A stretch of 37,827 bases of DNA from Candidatus Jordarchaeia archaeon (lineage in GTDB: Archaea; Asgardarchaeota; Jordiarchaeia; Jordiarchaeales; Jordiarchaeaceae), in the NCBI GenBank assembly GCA_029856435.1, contig JAHQXB010000043.1, forward strand, positions 1 to 37,827, in the 5' to 3' direction. Shown piece after piece: positions 9,968 through 19,616 of this stretch. The notes under the pieces were generated by a model. The model did not search any database. It had not been told where the DNA came from and was given only the letters and a program-made list of their open reading frames with translations. The first letter of the stretch is position 1. Every line of letters begins with the position of its first letter. A program made the translations under genes and the position numbers.

Positions 9968-12900
9968 TTATATTTTTTTGGCTCTCGCCGACACATCTTG
10001 AAGTATCAGGTTTAACAGTTTTATTAGTTCCATATTTGTGGTGTATATTCCCAGAGGCTCTGGTGCTGCGACTGCTAGGATCATTTCTTCGCTGTCCCTG
10101 TTGAAGGCGTACACATTTCCGGAGTAATGTTTGATTTGTATGTTTGGCGTGGATATTGGGGGAGCCTTCCCCTCAACGTCTGAGACCAACATGACTCTCT
10201 GTCTGGGCATCTGTGAGAGCTCACTTAAGGGTACGTCCTCAAGAGTGGGTGTTAGGATTGTTATGGTGCTCTTTGTGTTTCTTATGAAGGTTTTGAGCAG
10301 GTTGAGTATTTGCTCTCTTCCCACCACCCTCTCAGTGTCTTCGAATGGTTTGGGCTCAATTTCCTCGGCTAGTTTCATTATTTTGGTAATTAATTTCAGG
10401 GTATCCTGGGTGTTGGTTATGGCTTCATCTATTTTTTCTGGAATTTCTTCTGCGAAGCTATTTAGGGCTAGAGTTGAGTCTCTCTCGTTTTCTTCGATGT
10501 TTATCTTGGTTAGGGTTATGGTTTTGCTTATTTCTTTTAGGTAGTTTGAGGTTGCTTCTTGAAGCTGTTGTTTCAGGGACTGTTCCATGGTTGAGTAACC
10601 TGAGTTTAGGGCCTCTCCAAGTGAGGTGTAACTATCCTTTATGCTTTCAATGGTTTCATAGGTTTTGGATTTGAGGTCAGAGTGTCTTTTTTCAAATAAG
10701 AGACCCAGTTCTCTTTCAAAATCCAAGAGTTTTGTTTGAAGGCTTGCGAAAGGCTTATCAGTTATTCCAGCAACGCTCTTCAGTTCGGTTTCTGTGGCGT
10801 CTCTACTCTCCCTACTATGTTTGTCCAGTGTAGATAACAAATCGTATTTCATTTTTTCCAAGTAGCCTGGCAATTCTTGTCCAATAGCGGATATTACCTC
10901 TTTGGCTCCTTTTAGCACATTGTCCTGTTTCTCCCTAATCTCGTCTCTGGTCTTGGCCAGGTTTTCTTCCAGTTTTTCCTTATGGTCAGTGAGTTGTTTT
11001 CTGAGCACTTGGAATTCTTGTTCTATTCTAGAGGATACCTCCTTCTCCTTTAGGCTCAACAGTTTTACTGCCTTCTCAACGTAGCCATTTAGAGCCTCCT
11101 TTAAATTGGAGTGGAATTCTCCCAGTCTTTGCTCAGTTGTACCAATGAACTCCTTTATCTGGGTTTCCAAGTTTCTTTCAAGCGCCAGCCTCTCATCAGA
11201 TATCTCCTGAATGATCTGGCTTCCAAGGACGGGGACCTCGCTGGCAATTTTATCCGCGAATGTTTCCAAATCCGCTATGGACTCTGAGGAAACTTTTTGT
11301 ATTTCTTCTTTTGAAGCTAGAAGGCCACTAACAGTTTGCCTGGTTCGTGTGAAAATTTTTTGGGCCTCTATATTTGCGTTTTCCAAAGTTTTCTGGAGGC
11401 TTTCAGTGGTTTCCTCAAGTGAACTCTTTAAAGTCTCAGAAAGGCTCTCCACTGTGCCTTTAAACTGGCCCACAGTGTTTTCTATCAGTGCAGTGGACTG
11501 GGCTCTTACTGATGTCAACACCTCGCTGAGGGTCTGCGATACTTGACTTAGCTGCTGTGTGGCCTCACTAAGCATCTCCTCTCCCTGCTGACTCACTCTC
11601 TGGGACATGTTGGAGCATTGTTTCAGAATGTTTTCCCTCCCCTTTTTCATTGCATCTCCAATGCTTCGCTCCAGCTGGTTCTGAAGAGATAAAACGTTTT
11701 TGCCCTGTTCACTTAAGTTATTGATTGTTTCCTCTAAAAACTTGTTCAGAGCCATTCCAGTTTGTTCCTTGAAGCTGTTCTGCTCTTCCAATATTTTGTT
11801 AATTTCATTCTTCACAGATTCGTGTAGTGCCTGATAGGTTTCAACGATTTTTCCAATCTTTGATTCGAAGGCGCCCAGTAGGGTTTTTATTTGCTCAGCT
11901 TTGCCCGACACCTCTTCATCAGCGTATTTTTCTGTGCGTTTAACCATTTCACTGCTTTCTGTAAACATGGATGCTGCGAGTTCTTCCAATTGCTTGGAGA
12001 AGGAATCTGTAGCCTCGGTTAACTTTGAGTGATGATTAGAATTCAGAGTGTTCAGTTTTCCCCGCATCTCCTCCAAGTTTGTGGCTTGGGTCAAAATGGA
12101 GCTAAGTTCTTGGAGAGAGTTTAGATTTGTTTCGGTGACAGCACTGGCGCTGTCTGAGACCAACTTGTAACTGGTTTCTAGCACGTCCTGGACTTGGCCA
12201 AAAAGGTTGCCCAATTGCTCCTGAACATCCGAAGAAAGGGCAGTGGTGGTTTCATAATTTTCAATTATTGCTTTCTGTAAAACTTCAGAGGTTTCCTCCA
12301 ACTGTTTACTGATTCTAGTTTTAGCTGATTCAAACGCTGTTAAGCAGCTGTCTTCATGGCTTCTCATCTGGCTTGAGGCGTCTTTTATAATCTCCATTAT
12401 TTCTTGAAGATAGCTGTCTAATTGCTTGTCAACCTCCAGGAATGATTCGCTCAAACTGCTCTCGTTTATGTTCTTGAGGTTAATTATTTCGGAGTTCACA
12501 ACATCTTCGTAGGTTACCTTCACCGCTTGGTCAATTTCCCCTTTAGTTTTGGCGTCCTGGTCAACGAATAGGCGAATTGTTTTTTCAGTGCTCTTTCCGA
12601 GCGACTCTCTAATGTATGTCAAACTCCTGTCAAGCTCATCGAGGATGTTTGTGGAAACCATATTAATATTCTGGTTAACATCATTAACGGAGCTGCGTAG
12701 TTCACCTTTTAGAACCATAATTTCCTTTTTACTTGCAGCGATTCTATTCATAAGCTCCTCTGTTTCTTCCTTTCCCAGTGAGAACTTTTTCTTATCGCCC
12801 GACTTGTCCTCAATGTACTGGAGGATGTCAACCATTTTGTTAATCGCGGTGGTGAAGGTTTCTTCAAAACTGGTCATTTTACTCTTTTGAACCGCAACAC

Positions 12901-15406
12901 TATCTGTAAAGTTAACTGAAAGATTTTTTCTAAGAGACTCTGACTCGGAAGCGAAGTTGGACATAAAGTCTTCTAGGTGTTTCTTGGTTAACTGTGTCCT
13001 ATTCTCCAAGTACTCACCAATTTTTCCCACCAGACTCTTGTCCGCTTCACTTATCCTTTTTAGAATATTTTCTACAACTGTTCTTAAGTCTTTAGAGGCG
13101 CTGTCTTTTCTTTCTTTTAAGTTTTGCTTTAGGGATTTGGTTCTCCCGTCTATTTCTGCGCCTTTTGTTTCCAGCTCGACCTCCACTTTTTGGAGCCCTT
13201 CGCTTAGGGACGATTTTAACAGTTTTTCCTGCTCCCCCAAAATTTCCCAGATTTTTTCCAATCCCTTTTTTACTTTGTCCGAGTCAATGGTCTTTTTTGT
13301 GAATAGAGTCTCTTCCCACTCCTTAGTCTTTTTCTCCAATTTCTCCTTCAACTGTTCAAGATTTTTCATCAGCTCTTCTTGATTGGTTCTAAGGGTTGAT
13401 GCAACCTGCTGGCTCTGCGCATTTATTTTTTCTTCCACAATTGTACGGGTTTTGTTAAAGGACCCCATTATGTAGTTAACCTTGTTCTCCAATCCCTCAA
13501 TTGTCTGTTTTAGGGCTTCATCGATTTCCACCAAGTAACTGTCCCTAAGGACCGTTATTCTGTCACCAACGCTTTTTGCCAGCCCAACAAATCTCTGTAA
13601 CACCTGGTCACTGTGTTTACGAAATTCTTGAACCAAGTTTTCCCGCAGTTCATTTAGGGTGTTGTGGAATTCTTGTATTGCATCTTTGACCAAGTTTTTC
13701 ACAGAGTCATTAGTCTGGCTAGTTACAGAGTCAAAAGCCTGTTTTGACCAGTTATCGAAGCCAATCAAACTGTTTTCCCGAGCATCTAAAACCTCGTGGA
13801 AATTGTCCAGAGAGATTTGCACTGCTTCCTTAAATTTGTCCTGAAGTTTGTTTAGAACCGCAGCCTGTTCTTTTATGCAGCTCTCCACTTCACTCATAAC
13901 CATTGCGGAGTAGCCCTCAAAGAGATGTGTGGTGGACTTCTCAATTATTGTTCCCTGTTCTTCCACAGCCCTCATCAGAGACTCTTTTAAGTTTCGGGAA
14001 GCTTCTCCGATCATATTTATTTGTGTTTGGATTTTCTCTCCCAGAGTGAGTAAGCTGCCACCCAAAGAGTCAGCCATTTGCTCCCACTGTTTCGAAATCT
14101 GGAATACTGTTCGCTCAAAGAGGACTCCCTGTCCACCCTCATATTTTTTTAGTGTAGTTGTGATATCTTGCATCCTTTGTCCTAGTGCCTCAAATGATCT
14201 ATCTAGTGTGCTTAGGGGTTCTGTGGTTTCATCCTTATATTTCTCCATTATGCGTGATGCTTCCGTTTGGAAATTGTTTATGAATTCTTTAATCTTGGAG
14301 TTTACTCTCTTTGATTCTTCAAGTATTAGACCTCTAAGCTTTGCGGTTTGAACCTTAACCTTTTCCTCAGCTTCTCCTAGGAAGCCGACTAATTTTTTCT
14401 GGTTCAGATCGAGGTTTTTTCCGATATCCCCTAAAAGTGCCGAGTTAACGTCCCTCACTCTTGATAATTGTGTTTCAGTTAGGGGCTTCAATTCCTCCAC
14501 AAATTCCGAAACTCCAGACATCACGGTCTTAGCAATTTTTAGGGTGTTTTCATTTATAGTGTTTAGTGATTGGAGTTTGATGTCTCTAACACCTTTTAGA
14601 GATTGGTCTAAGGTATAATCTATGTCTGAGAATAGGGTTATGAGTTCAGAGTTTGTTCTTGCGGATACATCGCTTGTTCTTGTTTCTATGGCTTTTAAAG
14701 TATCGTTTACAGCGGTTTCCAGCTTTTCTTGAAACTCATTTATGGAGTTTCTTGTATGTTCTATGAAGTCCTTCAAAACTTTCTCGGAAGTTTCCTTTAC
14801 CCTTTCTATGTCGCTTCGAAAGGTGTCCACTGCTTCTTTGGCTCTGCCGACGAGGGTTTTTATTATTTCGCGGGAATCCTTCTCGTGGTGTTCAAGCATC
14901 TGTGTTAGGAGCTCTCCAACGCTTTGTGATTGTTGATTTGCTTCGGTTTGAAAATTGTCCAAGGATTCTTTAGTTGAAGCCAGAAGCTGGCCTAGCAGTT
15001 GAGAACTACTGTCTTTAACTTCCTTCAAATAAGTGGCTAAGCGCTCATCCAGACGAGTTTTGAGAGAAAGCACGCTCCTACTAAGTTGTTCAATGGCGCT
15101 TTTGGCACGTTCCACCATGTTTTTCTTCAAGTTTTCCAGCTTTGACTGAAGTGTTTCGGCAACCATACCAGTAAGGGCTAGGCGGGGGGTTAAAGCAATG
15201 TAGAAGTCAATTTTTCCCGGAATTTTTTTAATAACTCCCATAGACTCCAGTTTTTCCAGCTCCCGTGTAACTTCCGGAATGGTTAGATTCGTGTAGACTG
15301 CTAATTCTGAGGCTGTTTTTGCGCCAAGTCCCACACATGTTGCGTAAACTTTTGCCTGTACGCCGGTTATTCCAATATCCTTCAGAGTGTCTTCCCAAAC
15401 GGACAT
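9968..15406 (-). CDS. Giant TrmB-like protein, 1812 aa: N-terminal winged HTH (about aa 1-77), about 1600 aa of amphipathic helix/coiled coil, C-terminal TrmB effector/PLD-like domain (about aa 1692-1812)
   Basis: N-terminus LKDIGITGVQAKVY...TASELA...ELEKLESMGVIKKIPGKIDFYIALTP fits the TrmB wHTH pattern. C-terminus VVGREQILNLLKTFIRNTKSTITILTP...YAFNRDSEEMILA fits the TrmB C-terminal alpha/beta domain. The middle is E/K/L/S/Q-rich with very few Pro. Confidence 0.85.
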   Translation of the reverse strand: MSVWEDTLKDIGITGVQAKVYATCVGLGAKTASELAVYTNLTIPEVTRELEKLESMGVIKKIPGKIDFYIALTPRLALTGMVAETLQSKLENLKKNMVERAKSAIEQLSRSVLSLKTRLDERLATYLKEVKDSSSQLLGQLLASTKESLDNFQTEANQQSQSVGELLTQMLEHHEKDSREIIKTLVGRAKEAVDTFRSDIERVKETSEKVLKDFIEHTRNSINEFQEKLETAVNDTLKAIETRTSDVSARTNSELITLFSDIDYTLDQSLKGVRDIKLQSLNTINENTLKIAKTVMSGVSEFVEELKPLTETQLSRVRDVNSALLGDIGKNLDLNQKKLVGFLGEAEEKVKVQTAKLRGLILEESKRVNSKIKEFINNFQTEASRIMEKYKDETTEPLSTLDRSFEALGQRMQDITTTLKKYEGGQGVLFERTVFQISKQWEQMADSLGGSLLTLGEKIQTQINMIGEASRNLKESLMRAVEEQGTIIEKSTTHLFEGYSAMVMSEVESCIKEQAAVLNKLQDKFKEAVQISLDNFHEVLDARENSLIGFDNWSKQAFDSVTSQTNDSVKNLVKDAIQEFHNTLNELRENLVQEFRKHSDQVLQRFVGLAKSVGDRITVLRDSYLVEIDEALKQTIEGLENKVNYIMGSFNKTRTIVEEKINAQSQQVASTLRTNQEELMKNLEQLKEKLEKKTKEWEETLFTKKTIDSDKVKKGLEKIWEILGEQEKLLKSSLSEGLQKVEVELETKGAEIDGRTKSLKQNLKERKDSASKDLRTVVENILKRISEADKSLVGKIGEYLENRTQLTKKHLEDFMSNFASESESLRKNLSVNFTDSVAVQKSKMTSFEETFTTAINKMVDILQYIEDKSGDKKKFSLGKEETEELMNRIAASKKEIMVLKGELRSSVNDVNQNINMVSTNILDELDRSLTYIRESLGKSTEKTIRLFVDQDAKTKGEIDQAVKVTYEDVVNSEIINLKNINESSLSESFLEVDKQLDSYLQEIMEIIKDASSQMRSHEDSCLTAFESAKTRISKQLEETSEVLQKAIIENYETTTALSSDVQEQLGNLFGQVQDVLETSYKLVSDSASAVTETNLNSLQELSSILTQATNLEEMRGKLNTLNSNHHSKLTEATDSFSKQLEELAASMFTESSEMVKRTEKYADEEVSGKAEQIKTLLGAFESKIGKIVETYQALHESVKNEINKILEEQNSFKEQTGMALNKFLEETINNLSEQGKNVLSLQNQLERSIGDAMKKGRENILKQCSNMSQRVSQQGEEMLSEATQQLSQVSQTLSEVLTSVRAQSTALIENTVGQFKGTVESLSETLKSSLEETTESLQKTLENANIEAQKIFTRTRQTVSGLLASKEEIQKVSSESIADLETFADKIASEVPVLGSQIIQEISDERLALERNLETQIKEFIGTTEQRLGEFHSNLKEALNGYVEKAVKLLSLKEKEVSSRIEQEFQVLRKQLTDHKEKLEENLAKTRDEIREKQDNVLKGAKEVISAIGQELPGYLEKMKYDLLSTLDKHSRESRDATETELKSVAGITDKPFASLQTKLLDFERELGLLFEKRHSDLKSKTYETIESIKDSYTSLGEALNSGYSTMEQSLKQQLQEATSNYLKEISKTITLTKINIEENERDSTLALNSFAEEIPEKIDEAITNTQDTLKLITKIMKLAEEIEPKPFEDTERVVGREQILNLLKTFIRNTKSTITILTPTLEDVPLSELSQMPRQRVMLVSDVEGKAPPISTPNIQIKHYSGNVYAFNRDSEEMILAVAAPEPLGIYTTNMELIKLLNLILQDVSARAKKI

Positions 15407-15407
15407 T

Positions 15408-17729
15408 TTAGGCTTCCCCTACTTTTGAGATTTCTTTTTCAACGGCCTCTAATTGTTTTTGAGCTTCGCTCACAGACTTCAAAAAGTTTGCGAGTCCCTT
15501 TGATATGCTTCCTCCACTCTTTTTCACTTCACCCTCAACAGAGGAGAGGCTGGTAATAAGCGTTTTAATGTTCTCCTGTATATTGCTCATCTCTTCCTTC
15601 AATTCTTTGAGCAGCTGGTTTCCCTGTTCTGATAATTCACTGCTTGTTTTTTTGCCTTGCTCCGACAGTTTTTTAGAAATACTTGCGTAGGAACCTTCAA
15701 GGTTTTCCTTCACCTTTACTTTAACGGAAGTCAAGCTGGGTTCAGCGTCCTCAGCCACACTTTTTATATATTCGCTTAGGGAGTATTTTTCCGCATCTGC
15801 GGTTTCCAAAATGCTCGATTTGCTCTCCTCCAACTCCTTCTTGAGACTACTTATACTATTTGTGACGATGTTCTTTAGGGTGGACTCCAATCTCTCAACA
15901 GACTCCATAGTTGCTGAAGAACTCTCATTTATTCCTTCACCCATTTTTTGCTGGAACTCATTTACCAGATTTTCAATACTTTTTCCCAAATTCTGGTCCA
16001 GCTCCCGCAATTTCTTGATGAAGGCTTCCTGCACTTCTATCGTTTTCGTTTTGGTTCCTTCAAGAATTTGACTAAAATTCCCTTTTGATTCTCCAACGTC
16101 TCTAATCACTCTTTCTAGGGATTGCTCTATTTCTGTGGTCATGCTTGTTGATGCACTTTCTCCAATTTCACCCATCAATTCACTGGTGCTTTTAATAAGT
16201 CCTGAGGTCTTACTCCTGAAATCAGCATTCTGAGATAGGATTAAGGCTTGGTTGGCGTCGAGGACGCTCCTAACATTCCTTGTGACACTATCTTTAATGG
16301 ACTTGTTCTTTTCAACATATCCCTCCAAAGATTCAGACAGTTTTTCTAGGAATTTTTTTAGAGCCCCATCAAAATCCTGCTTTGTTTCTGCCAGTCCAGA
16401 GTCGAAATTGGACTTTATTAGTGAGGCGTTATCATAGAAGGATTTAACGGACACAGTTGCCATTTGTGTGAATTGCTCCTCATAGCTTTGAAGAACGGAT
16501 TGAATCTCCTTCAGTTGCGAAACAAACATTTCATTAATATTAGTATTTATTGAGTCTACCAATTTGGATATCTGCTCCAAAGCACTCGAGAGATCCTCTC
16601 TTATCTGTTCCTGTAAAGATAGCACACTTCCCTCCAGTCGTTCCAGCTGACTCACAAGTTGGGAAGAGAAGCTGGAAATCAGGTTTCCCACACTCTTGGA
16701 GAACTCTTCCTCCTTTGAACTGACTACTTCCGAAAGTTTATCCTTGGCTCTGCTGCTAATCTCTTCAATTTCCTTGATTTTAGCTTCCGCAATGCCTTTT
16801 AGTTCTGTTTTAAACTCTTCTTTCACCTTCTCCAGAAGGGATGTAGCCTCCTCAAATTTTTCGTCCGCATCACCCTTAAGCCTTTCGTGAGACTCAGCCA
16901 CCTTACCCTTATACTCGTCACAAATCTTGTCCAGAGAGCTTATGGTTTCTGTATCCAGCGTTTCCAGCCTATTTTTCATCTGGAGAACCATGGATTCAGC
17001 TTTCCTTTTGGCGTCCGCAAATATGGATAAGAGATTATCTTGATGCTTATCTAAAATTTCAGATGCCTGTGTTCCAAAATCCCCAATTTGAGTCGTAAAG
17101 CGTGCATAGTTTCCTTTTATTTCGCTGCCTTCCTCCTCTTCGAATTTTTGTATGCTTGAAAGGAGTTGACTGCTTAACTCTTCAGAGACTTTTGATAATA
17201 GTTCCTCCTGTTTCTTTCGGTTTTCCTGAGTTTTGGAGCGAAACTCCGCCGCTAGTTCACCAATCTGTGAAATCATTGATTCTACTTGGGTGTCCAGGTT
17301 TGATTGTGTGCTTGTGATACTTTGGCTGAAACTGCCCTTTGAAGCCTCAATTTTTTCCGTGATTCTACTATCTACTTGTTTCAGGTTTGCAAGTAGCCCC
17401 TCAGTTATGCGGTCAATTCCCTGGCTGAGAGCATCAACCTGAGTGTTAATTTCTTCCCTCAGGCTTGCCTCCATCTCTTGCATCCATTTAATGACATTGC
17501 TTTCAGCATCCTTAAGTGAGGCCAAAAACTTCTTCCTTAACGCATCCTCATTCGACTGCAGCTGTTTTGAAGCAGTTTTCAATTTTTCAGATGAGGAACC
17601 AATTTGCTCAGTTAAGCTGGAAAACGTCTGGTCTAACCTCGTTTCCAATTCCTTGACACTATTTTTTGTTTCTTCCAATGATTCCCTTTTGGCTGCAACC
17701 TTCTGCTGAATTTTTTCCATAAAGTTCAT
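15408..17729 (-). CDS. All-alpha-helical coiled-coil/apolipoprotein-like protein, 773 aa, no recognisable globular domain (start may be ATG 17720)
   Basis: Long ORF in the E/K/S/L-rich helical style of its neighbour, with a single Pro. ATGA overlap with the upstream stop; ends 1 nt before the next ATG. The GGAGG SD is better spaced for ATG 17720. Confidence 0.88.
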   Translation of the reverse strand: MNFMEKIQQKVAAKRESLEETKNSVKELETRLDQTFSSLTEQIGSSSEKLKTASKQLQSNEDALRKKFLASLKDAESNVIKWMQEMEASLREEINTQVDALSQGIDRITEGLLANLKQVDSRITEKIEASKGSFSQSITSTQSNLDTQVESMISQIGELAAEFRSKTQENRKKQEELLSKVSEELSSQLLSSIQKFEEEEGSEIKGNYARFTTQIGDFGTQASEILDKHQDNLLSIFADAKRKAESMVLQMKNRLETLDTETISSLDKICDEYKGKVAESHERLKGDADEKFEEATSLLEKVKEEFKTELKGIAEAKIKEIEEISSRAKDKLSEVVSSKEEEFSKSVGNLISSFSSQLVSQLERLEGSVLSLQEQIREDLSSALEQISKLVDSINTNINEMFVSQLKEIQSVLQSYEEQFTQMATVSVKSFYDNASLIKSNFDSGLAETKQDFDGALKKFLEKLSESLEGYVEKNKSIKDSVTRNVRSVLDANQALILSQNADFRSKTSGLIKSTSELMGEIGESASTSMTTEIEQSLERVIRDVGESKGNFSQILEGTKTKTIEVQEAFIKKLRELDQNLGKSIENLVNEFQQKMGEGINESSSATMESVERLESTLKNIVTNSISSLKKELEESKSSILETADAEKYSLSEYIKSVAEDAEPSLTSVKVKVKENLEGSYASISKKLSEQGKKTSSELSEQGNQLLKELKEEMSNIQENIKTLITSLSSVEGEVKKSGGSISKGLANFLKSVSEAQKQLEAVEKEISKVGEA

Positions 17730-19447
17730 TCCTCCTTAATTGTAACTTTTTTGTTTAAAGCCTCAAACTCCTTTAGAAAAATCGGCTGATTAGTAAAGGC
17801 GTTTGTAGCCTTTTCATATAACCTCTTTATTCTATCTTTGTCACCCGCCCGCATGTAATGTTCAAAGGCTTTGTGATAAAAAACTCGAGCCATCATTTTG
17901 AAGCCCATACCATCATATTCGTCTCCAATTTCCTCGTAAATTAAAGCAGCACTCCTAGCTACGGAGCGGGCCTTCCACTCCACACCCAATGCGGCAAAGA
18001 GTTCCGAAGCGTGGGAAAGAAGGAATCGTGAATAGAAGCGTTTACCCTTACCCTCAAAAAGTTCAGCGGCCTTCTCCAGAATCATTCCCGCCCGCTCCCT
18101 ATCCCCCAACCTTTCATAAATACTTACAGTTATCCGGAAAAGCTGAAAAGATTCACTATAAAGCTTCTTCTCCATAGCAGAGTATGCATAAACCTCGGCG
18201 TTTGCAGCAATCTCTAAGGCAAGGGCCGGTTTATCCTGAGAAATCAACATGTTCGCTGAATCCCTCAACCATTCAAAATAAATACGATCCAACCTCTCCC
18301 TAGTCTCTATCATCCTTCCAATAACCTTCAACAACGTTCTTGCTCGGCCATAAATCTGATCCACGTTTACAAGAAGCCTCAACATTTCATAGATGGCTTC
18401 AGACTTGAGCCACACCGTGGACTCATCAACCTCCACTATGCCCTCTCCAACCAAGAGGTTTAGAACCTCCCGACTGGTTTTCTTATCACCCTCCTGACTT
18501 ATCTCCTCTATGGGAACCATGTTAAATTTTTGCGAAACAATCCTCTCTATTACCGTCTCCTTTTCCACAGTGAGATCAGTTATAGCATTGAGAGCATTAT
18601 CTTGGATCTTTCCATTTACCATTCGAAAAAGTTCTACGCTTGGCTGAGAACCACTCTTAACGGTTTCCCGCAGCAAGCCACACATAAACAAGGCTAGTTT
18701 GAAAGGAATACCCCCCGAAGCTTTGGTTAATTCCTCCTTAAGAGCATCATCAATTTTGATTCCAGTTAAAGCCTGATATTTCTGTATTAACAGTCGAATA
18801 TCTTGGGTGGAGAAAACATCCAACTCCACAACATAAAAGAGTTCAGGCCTATCACCTATCAAAGCCTCAAGAAACCTTCTGTCCACGCAGAGCACAAAAA
18901 ACAAGTTAAATTTCATTTCGCCCAGTTTAGCTGCCACCTCTCTCAATAGAAGATAAGCGGTCTCGTAACCCAACCAGGCGAAACGCTCAAAATCGTCGCA
19001 GAAAAACATCAAAGTCCTGCGAAGCTTTTCCTGAACCTTATCCATATCCTCAAAAAACTGCTTCAAAAAGTATTCCAGCTCACCTTCCCCAAGCTCCTTG
19101 GACACGGGGGGAGCCGCAACATATTTTTTTTCTCCCATAAACTTTTTCCTAGCCTCAGGAGCATAACCATCAACAGTCTTCTTAACATCATCAAAAAACA
19201 CTCTCACATTGGACGCAGAAACCCTTCTAACCACCACTTCGATGCCTTCCTTTTCCGCTATCTGCGTAAACCTTTTTAGCAGGGAAGACTTTCCAATACC
19301 GGGAATCCCAGTTATAACGAAAATCCTCCTATCCTCAGAACCAGTCTTCGCCCGAGAAATAAAGTCCTGAAACAAGCTAACCTCTCTGGTTCTACCCGTA
19401 AAAAGCTCCCTATCAACAGGCTCAACACAACTAATTTTCTTCTCCAA
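17726..19447 (-). CDS. STAND/AAA_16-type P-loop NTPase with winged helix and C-terminal TPR/SNAP-like helical repeats (ORF track extends to 19510)
   Basis: FTGRTRE (hhGRxxE), Walker A GIPGIGKS, Walker B MFFCDDFE, SGGIP (GxP), wH-like EVLNLLVGEGIVEVD, then A/Y/E-rich repeats (AAELFEGKG...AALIYEEIGD...AFEHYMRAGD). Probable TTG start at 19447 after GGTGG. Confidence 0.85.
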   Translation of the reverse strand: MEKKISCVEPVDRELFTGRTREVSLFQDFISRAKTGSEDRRIFVITGIPGIGKSSLLKRFTQIAEKEGIEVVVRRVSASNVRVFFDDVKKTVDGYAPEARKKFMGEKKYVAAPPVSKELGEGELEYFLKQFFEDMDKVQEKLRRTLMFFCDDFERFAWLGYETAYLLLREVAAKLGEMKFNLFFVLCVDRRFLEALIGDRPELFYVVELDVFSTQDIRLLIQKYQALTGIKIDDALKEELTKASGGIPFKLALFMCGLLRETVKSGSQPSVELFRMVNGKIQDNALNAITDLTVEKETVIERIVSQKFNMVPIEEISQEGDKKTSREVLNLLVGEGIVEVDESTVWLKSEAIYEMLRLLVNVDQIYGRARTLLKVIGRMIETRERLDRIYFEWLRDSANMLISQDKPALALEIAANAEVYAYSAMEKKLYSESFQLFRITVSIYERLGDRERAGMILEKAAELFEGKGKRFYSRFLLSHASELFAALGVEWKARSVARSAALIYEEIGDEYDGMGFKMMARVFYHKAFEHYMRAGDKDRIKRLYEKATNAFTNQPIFLKEFEALNKKVTIKEE

Positions 19448-19616
19448 AATAACCACCAACCAAAAATGAACACTAAACAAAAATAATAGAGAAAAACGAT
19501 AAATAAACATTTTTTAACTAAACCAGAAAAGGGGAAAAGTTTAGAATAGAATTTCACAAAAACAAAATTATACATCCTCAGCACAAAATCCCAAGCTTAG
19601 AGAGGAGGAAATAGTT

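Follow-up and report, generated by a model that had tools for sequence, protein, structure and literature searches.

TrmB and TrmBL2 of the Thermococcales (TrmB, PDB 3qph; TrmBL2, PF0496/TK0471, PDB 5box, 5bpd, and 5bqt) have the same order of domains: a winged helix, an amphipathic pairing helix of about 30 amino acids (aa), an E-x-P-K...V-x-G linker, and the first C-terminal subdomain, which in TrmBL2 is not followed by the sugar-binding half. In the TrmB dimer, the pairing helices of the two chains touch via Phe81/Ile91' and Phe84/Leu88' and are thus antiparallel, and the dimer has been called a domain swap in which the helix serves as the hinge loop (PMC4158304). Here we analyze a gene for a 1812-aa protein, P0001, that lies in a 37,827-nucleotide (nt) stretch of DNA from Candidatus Jordarchaeia archaeon (contig JAHQXB010000043.1 of assembly GCA_029856435.1; the whole stretch is referred to below as the window). 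The protein shares the TrmB domain order and likewise lacks the sugar-binding half, but in place of the pairing helix it has about 1600 aa of hendecad helix with a central turn. We conclude that this helix, which joins two TrmB halves, probably folds back at its midpoint to form a rod of about 120 nm, a conclusion that concerns architecture only.

Arms comparable to those predicted here are found in SMC, Rad50, and MukB, in which a long antiparallel coiled coil brings both terminal parts of a single chain together at one end and arm length is matched across insertions and deletions. The rod protein differs from SMC and Rad50 in that it has no ABC ATPase heads, hinge domain, or CxxC zinc hook. 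Its apex is a nine-residue loop, its termini are TrmB domains, its repeat is hendecad rather than heptad, and no sequence homology was found. The first-pass annotation had likened the protein to SMC arms that lack ATPase heads, and this agrees with the absence of a Walker A motif from the 1812-aa protein and of a Pfam match to SMC_N or Rad50; the four Cys residues of the protein are at aa 24, 510, 1021, and 1264. A further comparison is with Maxi (4ke2), a hyperactive type I antifreeze protein from winter flounder in which an 11-residue repeat forms a straight helical hairpin. This analogy is geometric only, as Maxi is a protein of about 195 aa that has no end domains and is unrelated in sequence, function, and organism.

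The hendecad rod and the turn at its midpoint

The boundaries of the rod were set with hidden Markov models (HMMs) at aa 85 and 1684, which places its midpoint at aa 884.5. The dominant hydrophobic periodicity between these positions is 3.66 residues, with a power of 429 at 11/3 and of 12 at 3.5 (maxima for shuffled sequences were about 69), and the choice between 11- and 7-residue periodicity that the first-pass annotation had raised is thus decided in favor of 11/3 over 7/2. In both arms the hydrophobic residues occupy mod-11 positions 1, 4, 5, and 8, the a-d-e-h core of a hendecad coiled coil. Runs without a register shift reach 247–280 aa, the first 247 aa of the N arm are unshifted, and one stretch of 994 aa contains no proline. 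A register model places 15 shifts in the rod, more of them in the C arm than in the N arm, at roughly mirrored positions (413/1366, 589/1189, and 860/898), which as support for symmetry of the two arms is suggestive only.

These 15 shifts, together with Gly-containing spots such as KKYEGGQGV at aa 420–428, could be taken as the joints of short helical bundles arranged in series, as in spectrin, and a parallel dimer may be considered along with them. We find both arrangements scarcely credible. The unbroken hendecad runs of 247–280 aa and the continuous helices of 129 and 121 aa predicted by AlphaFold2 (see below) speak against them, and neither bundles nor a parallel dimer would call for matched deletions in the two arms or for a break placed precisely at the midpoint.

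Long amphipathic helices with a periodicity of about 3.67 are also a property of apolipoproteins A1/A4/E and of the tail of ZorA, and the rod matches models of both, those for ZorA being from PADLOC and NCBIfam. It scores 119.5 bits against PF01442 (Apolipoprotein A1/A4/E; cut-off 90), it has ApoLp-III and phasin-type matches, and aa 96–1692 are matched by the PADLOC ZorA models with E values down to 3e-30, only at tail positions of the models (218 onward). Judged from the way they align, these are sliding multi-stretch matches to the periodicity and not signs of membership. The Zorya tail itself seems to share the periodicity of about 3.67, a likeness that we take to be convergent or compositional and not homologous.

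Because PF01442 is matched above its cut-off and lipid-binding 3-11 helices typically have a 3.67 periodicity, we considered an apolipoprotein- or perilipin-like coat, in which 11-mer amphipathic helices would lie flat and unpaired on lipid or membrane. Such a coat is extremely unlikely here. The hydrophobic residues form a narrow stripe, the a-d-e-h core of a hendecad coiled coil; the proline-punctuated 22-mers of apolipoproteins are missing, proline being absent over 994 aa, and near period 22 the power reaches only 32, under the maxima of shuffled sequences. A search for transmembrane-like hydrophobic segments in the protein found none (the highest 19-aa Kyte-Doolittle mean is 1.14). Moreover, a coat would leave the central loop, the mirror-image deletions, and the TrmB end domains unexplained.

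The first-pass annotation had also pointed to a basic turn-like segment near the midpoint of the insert. That segment, EDKSGDKKKFSLGK, does occupy aa 866–879 (nt 12770-12811), and its center, aa 872, falls at 0.492 of the rod. Hendecad amplitude falls to its lowest value in the whole rod at the turn, whose G, KKK, S, and L are invariant in 10 homologs. An AlphaFold2 model of aa 740–1000 built with the 10 homologs consists of two helices, aa 741–869 (129 aa) and aa 879–999 (121 aa), and the loop at aa 870–878 is the sole break between them (predicted local distance difference test score [pLDDT] 88.9, predicted template modeling score [pTM] 0.50); modeling around aa 870 thus returned the hairpin that had been proposed. 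In an all-against-all structure search, this tip model, an antiparallel hairpin, was aligned over both arms to Smc 5xg2 (Z 11.3, 233 residues), to 5nnv, and to the cytoplasmic domains of chemoreceptors. The Smc arm fragments 5xg2 and 5nnv gave the best of the long matches, and the match with the lowest root-mean-square deviation was Maxi (2.6 Å over 196 residues). These Z-scores are taken to express a common arrangement and not homology.

The turn is surrounded by a conserved module at aa 805–940, which is a probable docking surface, judging from its conservation. Invariant Phe, Ser, Thr, and Asn residues abound in its sequence (NFTDSVAVQKSKMTSFEETFTTA ... VSTNILDELDRSLTYI), which is unusual for a plain coiled coil. 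Charge at the turn is basic before the loop and acidic after it; this pattern would also be expected from helix capping alone and need not imply binding to a membrane. When aa 830–919 were used in a jackhmmer search, the central element was found only in the 10 close homologs, and in distant members the midpoint break was recognized by periodicity and charge.

We surveyed 28 nonredundant full-length members of the family, with rods of 372–1599 aa. The strongest hendecad discontinuity lies at 0.47–0.52 of the rod in 11 of the 28 (binomial p 4e-5), and the most basic 12-aa window lies at 0.45–0.55 in 12. At many midpoints a basic or aromatic stretch is followed by an acidic one, and in several there are prolines (RRPNQE, FRKPFPQ, KNPEF, EEGPRM), a pattern of charge and proline that fits a true helix stop. 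By these measures of periodicity, the location of the break at the midpoint exceeds chance, because it is the global amplitude minimum in P0001 and the same is found at 0.47–0.52 in 11 of the 28 members. Another subfamily (L022, L023; G050, G031) has frames of 1921–2092 aa in which another position, not the midpoint break, is the top minimum.

Length variants and the symmetry of the two arms

The closest relatives in the database are annotated as Freyarchaeota, Jordarchaeia, or Lokiarchaeia, and close homologs come in three lengths: 1812, 1339–1340, and 1168–1176 aa. All three lengths are present inside one genus, with frames of 1816, 1353, and 1180 aa. We determined arm lengths from alignments with long-gap scoring, together with a diagonal scan, and from HMM boundaries. 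P0001, from which nothing is missing, has N and C arms of 787 and 812 aa, with the loop at 0.492 and an estimated rod length of about 120 nm. In P0006 (1340 aa), 231 aa are missing from the N arm and 241 aa from the C arm, which leaves arms of 556 and 571 aa, the loop at 0.493, and a rod of about 85 nm. In P0009 (1168 aa), 334 and 315 aa are missing, and the arms are 453 and 503 aa, with the loop at 0.474 and a rod of about 72 nm. The insert thus kept its symmetry about the turn in homologs of other lengths (1340 and about 1170 aa), through paired deletions, as the first-pass annotation would have it.

The positions of the deletions are also mirrored. The boundaries in the 1340-aa class pair around the turn (396 with 1317, and 626 with 1077) to give mirror centers at aa 852–857, and those of P0010 (about 1170 aa) give centers at aa 880–898. 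If losses had been split randomly between the arms, the probability of the center being kept so well would be about 0.03 for the 1340-aa class and about 0.08 for the class of about 1170 aa. The profile of identity to a 54%-identical homolog of 1812 aa is likewise mirror symmetric, with the best correlation (r 0.60) at i+j = 1730–1736, which corresponds to a center at aa 865–868. When the two blocks missing in shorter homologs were compared by self-BLAST, the similarity between them was only background (about 20%), and nothing points to a recent duplication.

An ortholog from another family of the same order has a rod of 1596 aa, compared with 1599 aa in P0001, at a rod identity of about 20%, and its midpoint reads EGKKKLGKDE (L021, G006:C1:202000-208500). 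At this identity, insertions and deletions cannot be mapped reliably onto the same-order orthologs G070 and G006, and the direction of length change rests on the outgroup ortholog of 1.8 kaa. Because this ortholog keeps the rod length, the long form is probably ancestral. Rod length itself looks to be under selection, because length is constant at about 20% sequence identity and deletions are matched in both arms.

The most serious alternative to folding back within one chain is an antiparallel, domain-swapped dimer, in which two extended chains would pair head to tail to form a rod of about 240 nm, each end combining a winged helix from one chain with a C-terminal domain from its partner. The pairing helices of TrmB are antiparallel between chains (PMC4158304), and mirror symmetry, paired deletions, and a special midpoint would be expected of a dimer as well. 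We nevertheless judge the dimer unlikely. Its helix would run continuously through the dyad and would need neither a conserved nonhelical Gly loop, nor the prolines seen in relatives, nor charges of the capping type, and the AlphaFold2 model of the monomer is a confident hairpin. On these grounds the hairpin is favored over the dimer. By analogy with TrmB, the giant rod probably retains the ancestral antiparallel geometry, through pairing either with itself or with a second chain, because the pairing helices of TrmB are antiparallel (PMC4158304).

We favor the fold-back rod, which could have arisen as follows. The short pairing helix of TrmB, between the winged helix and the C-terminal domain, would have grown to about 1600 residues of a-d-e-h coiled coil. 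The chain would run outward for about 790 residues, turn at the loop at aa 870–878, and run back for about 810 residues. The product would be a nearly straight two-helix rod that has the two TrmB halves next to each other at the base and the conserved module (aa 805–940) at the tip.

Several points weigh against this reading. The evidence is all computational, the models were predicted from a shallow alignment of 10 sequences, and AlphaFold2 tends to make a hairpin of any monomer in which two helices are separated by a break. In about 60% of distant members the top minimum lies away from the midpoint break, the arms are uneven in the shortest class (453 versus 503–511 aa), and mirror symmetry is predicted equally by the antiparallel two-chain dimer. 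When aa 1–250 were submitted with aa 1510–1812 to complex prediction, the score was 0.04 (the mark is 0.32), a result that counts neither for nor against reunited ends. The first-pass annotation had proposed an intramolecular antiparallel coiled coil that reunites the two TrmB domains. Matched antiparallel arms are predicted by the AlphaFold2 hairpin and supported by the paired deletions and the mirrored conservation, and the intramolecular part of the proposal, pairing within a chain rather than between chains, is putative. In the computational checks that the annotation had suggested, no outcome was seen of the kind that it had named as contrary to its reading.

The end domains and their kinship with TrmB

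The N terminus, which had been annotated as a TrmB-like winged helix, indeed matches PF01978 at aa 8–74 (34.7 bits, cut-off 25.6 in Pfam), and a search of PDB sequences with aa 1–130 returned TrmB 3qph (E 0.002) as the best match, along with TrmBL2 (E 0.006). The assignment of the C-terminal domain (C-domain), proposed to start at about aa 1692, required family-level comparisons, and these bore it out. The domain begins at about aa 1685–1692, at EPKPFEDTERVVG, a linker that is similar to the TrmBL2 linker EVPKYGVERVWVVRG. The C-domain of P0001 alone had no direct match in Pfam or NCBIfam, and a profile of nine C-domain sequences retrieved nothing meaningful from PDB. A phmmer search with aa 1620–1812 against 1.8 billion representatives returned 60 proteins, from about 120 to 1812 aa long, and most of the full-length relatives share the layout of winged helix, rod, and C-domain. 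With a profile of 49 C-domains, the top PDB match was TrmBL2 5box (E 0.028), collinear over the entire TrmBL2 C-domain, and TrmB 3qph was next; 7 of the 49 family members match PF11495.

The genome from which the window comes contains seven copies of the C-domain. The six other copies belong to a rod protein of 753 aa, a rod protein of at least 607 aa (which runs to a contig end), a form of about 540 aa in which no winged helix was detected, and three TrmB-family proteins of 253–273 aa. In an hhalign comparison, the C-domains of the rod family matched those of these three canonical paralogs at 97.4% (E 9e-12). Two of the three paralogs score above the PF11495 cut-off, and the paralog matches to this model end at positions 134–135 of its 233. 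An AlphaFold2 model of aa 1640–1812 reached a pLDDT of 65, and fold searches with it (Foldseek against PDB, and VIA-align) retrieved only generic helical structures and no TrmB entry, the matches being driven by the two long helices of the domain. Because of the family profile, the PF11495 matches in relatives, and the hhalign match to the paralogs, we assign the C-domain by sequence comparison to TrmB, as the first C-terminal subdomain, the part also present in TrmBL2.

The winged helices of the canonical paralogs score 76–87 bits against PF01978, compared with 35 for that of the rod protein. Tyr50 and Asp51 of the TrmB recognition helix are replaced by T47 and R48 in P0001, and the recognition-helix Tyr is kept in the three short paralogs of the same genome. 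The conserved part of the winged helix in rod-bearing members is the wing motif IPGK. DNA binding by the rod protein is accordingly described here as putative.

Operon, distribution, and possible function

Coordinates of the features are collected in Table 1. The rod gene is the last of three consecutive genes on the same strand. The TGA stop of the first, which encodes a STAND-type NTPase, overlaps the ATG of the second (ATGA), and the ATG of the rod gene lies 1 nt past the TAA stop of the second. Because of this overlap and 1-nt spacing, the three genes are, to judge from their sequence, translationally coupled. The order of STAND gene, partner gene of about 770 aa, and rod gene is identical in three related loci of a close clade (L001–L003), whatever the length of the rod, and the flanking genes recur on related contigs.

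Table 1. Features of the rod gene, its operon, and related loci (positions in the window unless a contig is named)
Feature	Position (nt)	Strand	Remarks
Whole gene, TrmB-headed hendecad rod protein (P0001), 1812 aa	9968..15406	(-)	Open frame
TrmB-type winged helix-turn-helix, aa 1-85	15152..15406	(-)	PF01978 at aa 8-74
N arm, hendecad coiled coil, aa 86-869	12800..15151	(-)	
N-arm block absent in 1340-aa homologs, aa 396-626	13529..14221	(-)	231 aa = 21 hendecads
Conserved tip module around turn, aa 805-940	12587..12994	(-)	Conservation far above remaining rod, about level with end domains
Turn loop GDKKKFSLG, aa 870-878	12773..12799	(-)	
C arm, hendecad coiled coil, aa 879-1684	10355..12772	(-)	
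C-arm block absent in 1340-aa homologs, aa 1077-1317	11456..12178	(-)	241 aa; mirror partner of the N-arm block
TrmB/TrmBL2-type C-terminal domain, aa 1685-1812	9971..10354	(-)	First subdomain only; sugar-binding half missing
Upstream partner gene, 773-aa protein	15408..17729	(-)	Hendecad helix along entire length
First operon gene, 594-aa STAND-type NTPase (AAA_16/nSTAND1)	17726..19510	(-)	TPR/SNAP-like tail; Pfam
Six further own-genome copies of the C-domain	C137:21376-21849, C74:1327-1800, C180:54924-55343, C23:3259-3633, C94:1042-1383, C49:12650-13048		

The 773-aa partner has a power of 792 at period 11/3, with a phase that is constant throughout and no midpoint break. It contains about 70 unbroken hendecads and would measure about 115 nm as a single helix. 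Its orthologs (769–773 aa) align nearly without gaps, and conservation is highest at the center (aa ~330–440). We considered the partner as a sheath of arm length and rejected the idea: the partner is fixed at 769–773 aa in operons whose rod protein has 1168, 1340, or 1812 aa, the arms range from about 450 to 810 aa, and BLAST finds no similarity between partner and rod.

An operon that starts with a STAND-type NTPase might encode an antiviral defense component in which the rods would be scaffolds with a sensor or effector role, much like the long ZorA tail; the PADLOC ZorA matches to the rod and the variation of rod length inside one genus point in the same direction. We regard this as very unlikely. 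The ZorA matches spare its N-terminal MotA/ExbB/TolQ membrane domain, which the rod protein lacks along with any transmembrane segment, and the STAND protein, which has no effector domain, had no credible match among the PADLOC models. The flanking genes recur, distant members occur without the NTPase, and the C-domain family is near-universal: of 151 genomes sampled from the phylum, 145 contain it, most often as several copies, in open frames of up to 2092 aa. All named members come from Asgard archaea, and we found no paper that describes the family. The protein belongs to a branch of the TrmB family that is Asgard-wide and apparently undescribed.

As to function, we put forward only tentatively that the rod is a fixed-length spacer or tether between a partner bound at the head and a partner bound at the tip. 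The TrmBL2-like head would bind DNA or some other partner specific to the head, the tip would dock the second partner, and the cotranslated STAND NTPase and 773-aa hendecad protein would assist assembly or regulation. Two observations tell against parts of this proposal: the operon of STAND and 773-aa genes is absent in the three distant members examined, and the DNA-tether part is weakened because the DNA-reading Tyr50 is missing and the recognition helix is acidic in all rod-bearing members.

A broader scheme, which we consider speculative and rather unlikely, would make the rods fixed-length rulers or tethers of an Asgard-specific scaffold inside the cell. A repurposed TrmBL2-type head would be placed on the nucleoid, and the conserved tip of a rod of 45–120 nm would engage the membrane, the cytoskeleton, or the 115-nm hendecad protein under the control of the STAND NTPase, which would amount to a prokaryotic system of nucleoid-to-periphery spacing. 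In this scheme the central loop might also allow a switch between the closed hairpin and the swapped 240-nm dimer.

If the fold-back rod is real, Asgard archaea possess near-universal rods of SMC length, in multiple paralogs, that carry a transcription-factor head and no ATPase, a combination that has not been described. Selection on length is consistent with a spacer or ruler. Within a single genus, rods of about 72, 85, and 120 nm already make up a series of lengths. If true, the finding would raise questions about the organization of the nucleoid and the cell interior in Asgard archaea, the closest relatives of eukaryotes, and would bear on the origin of eukaryotic cell architecture.

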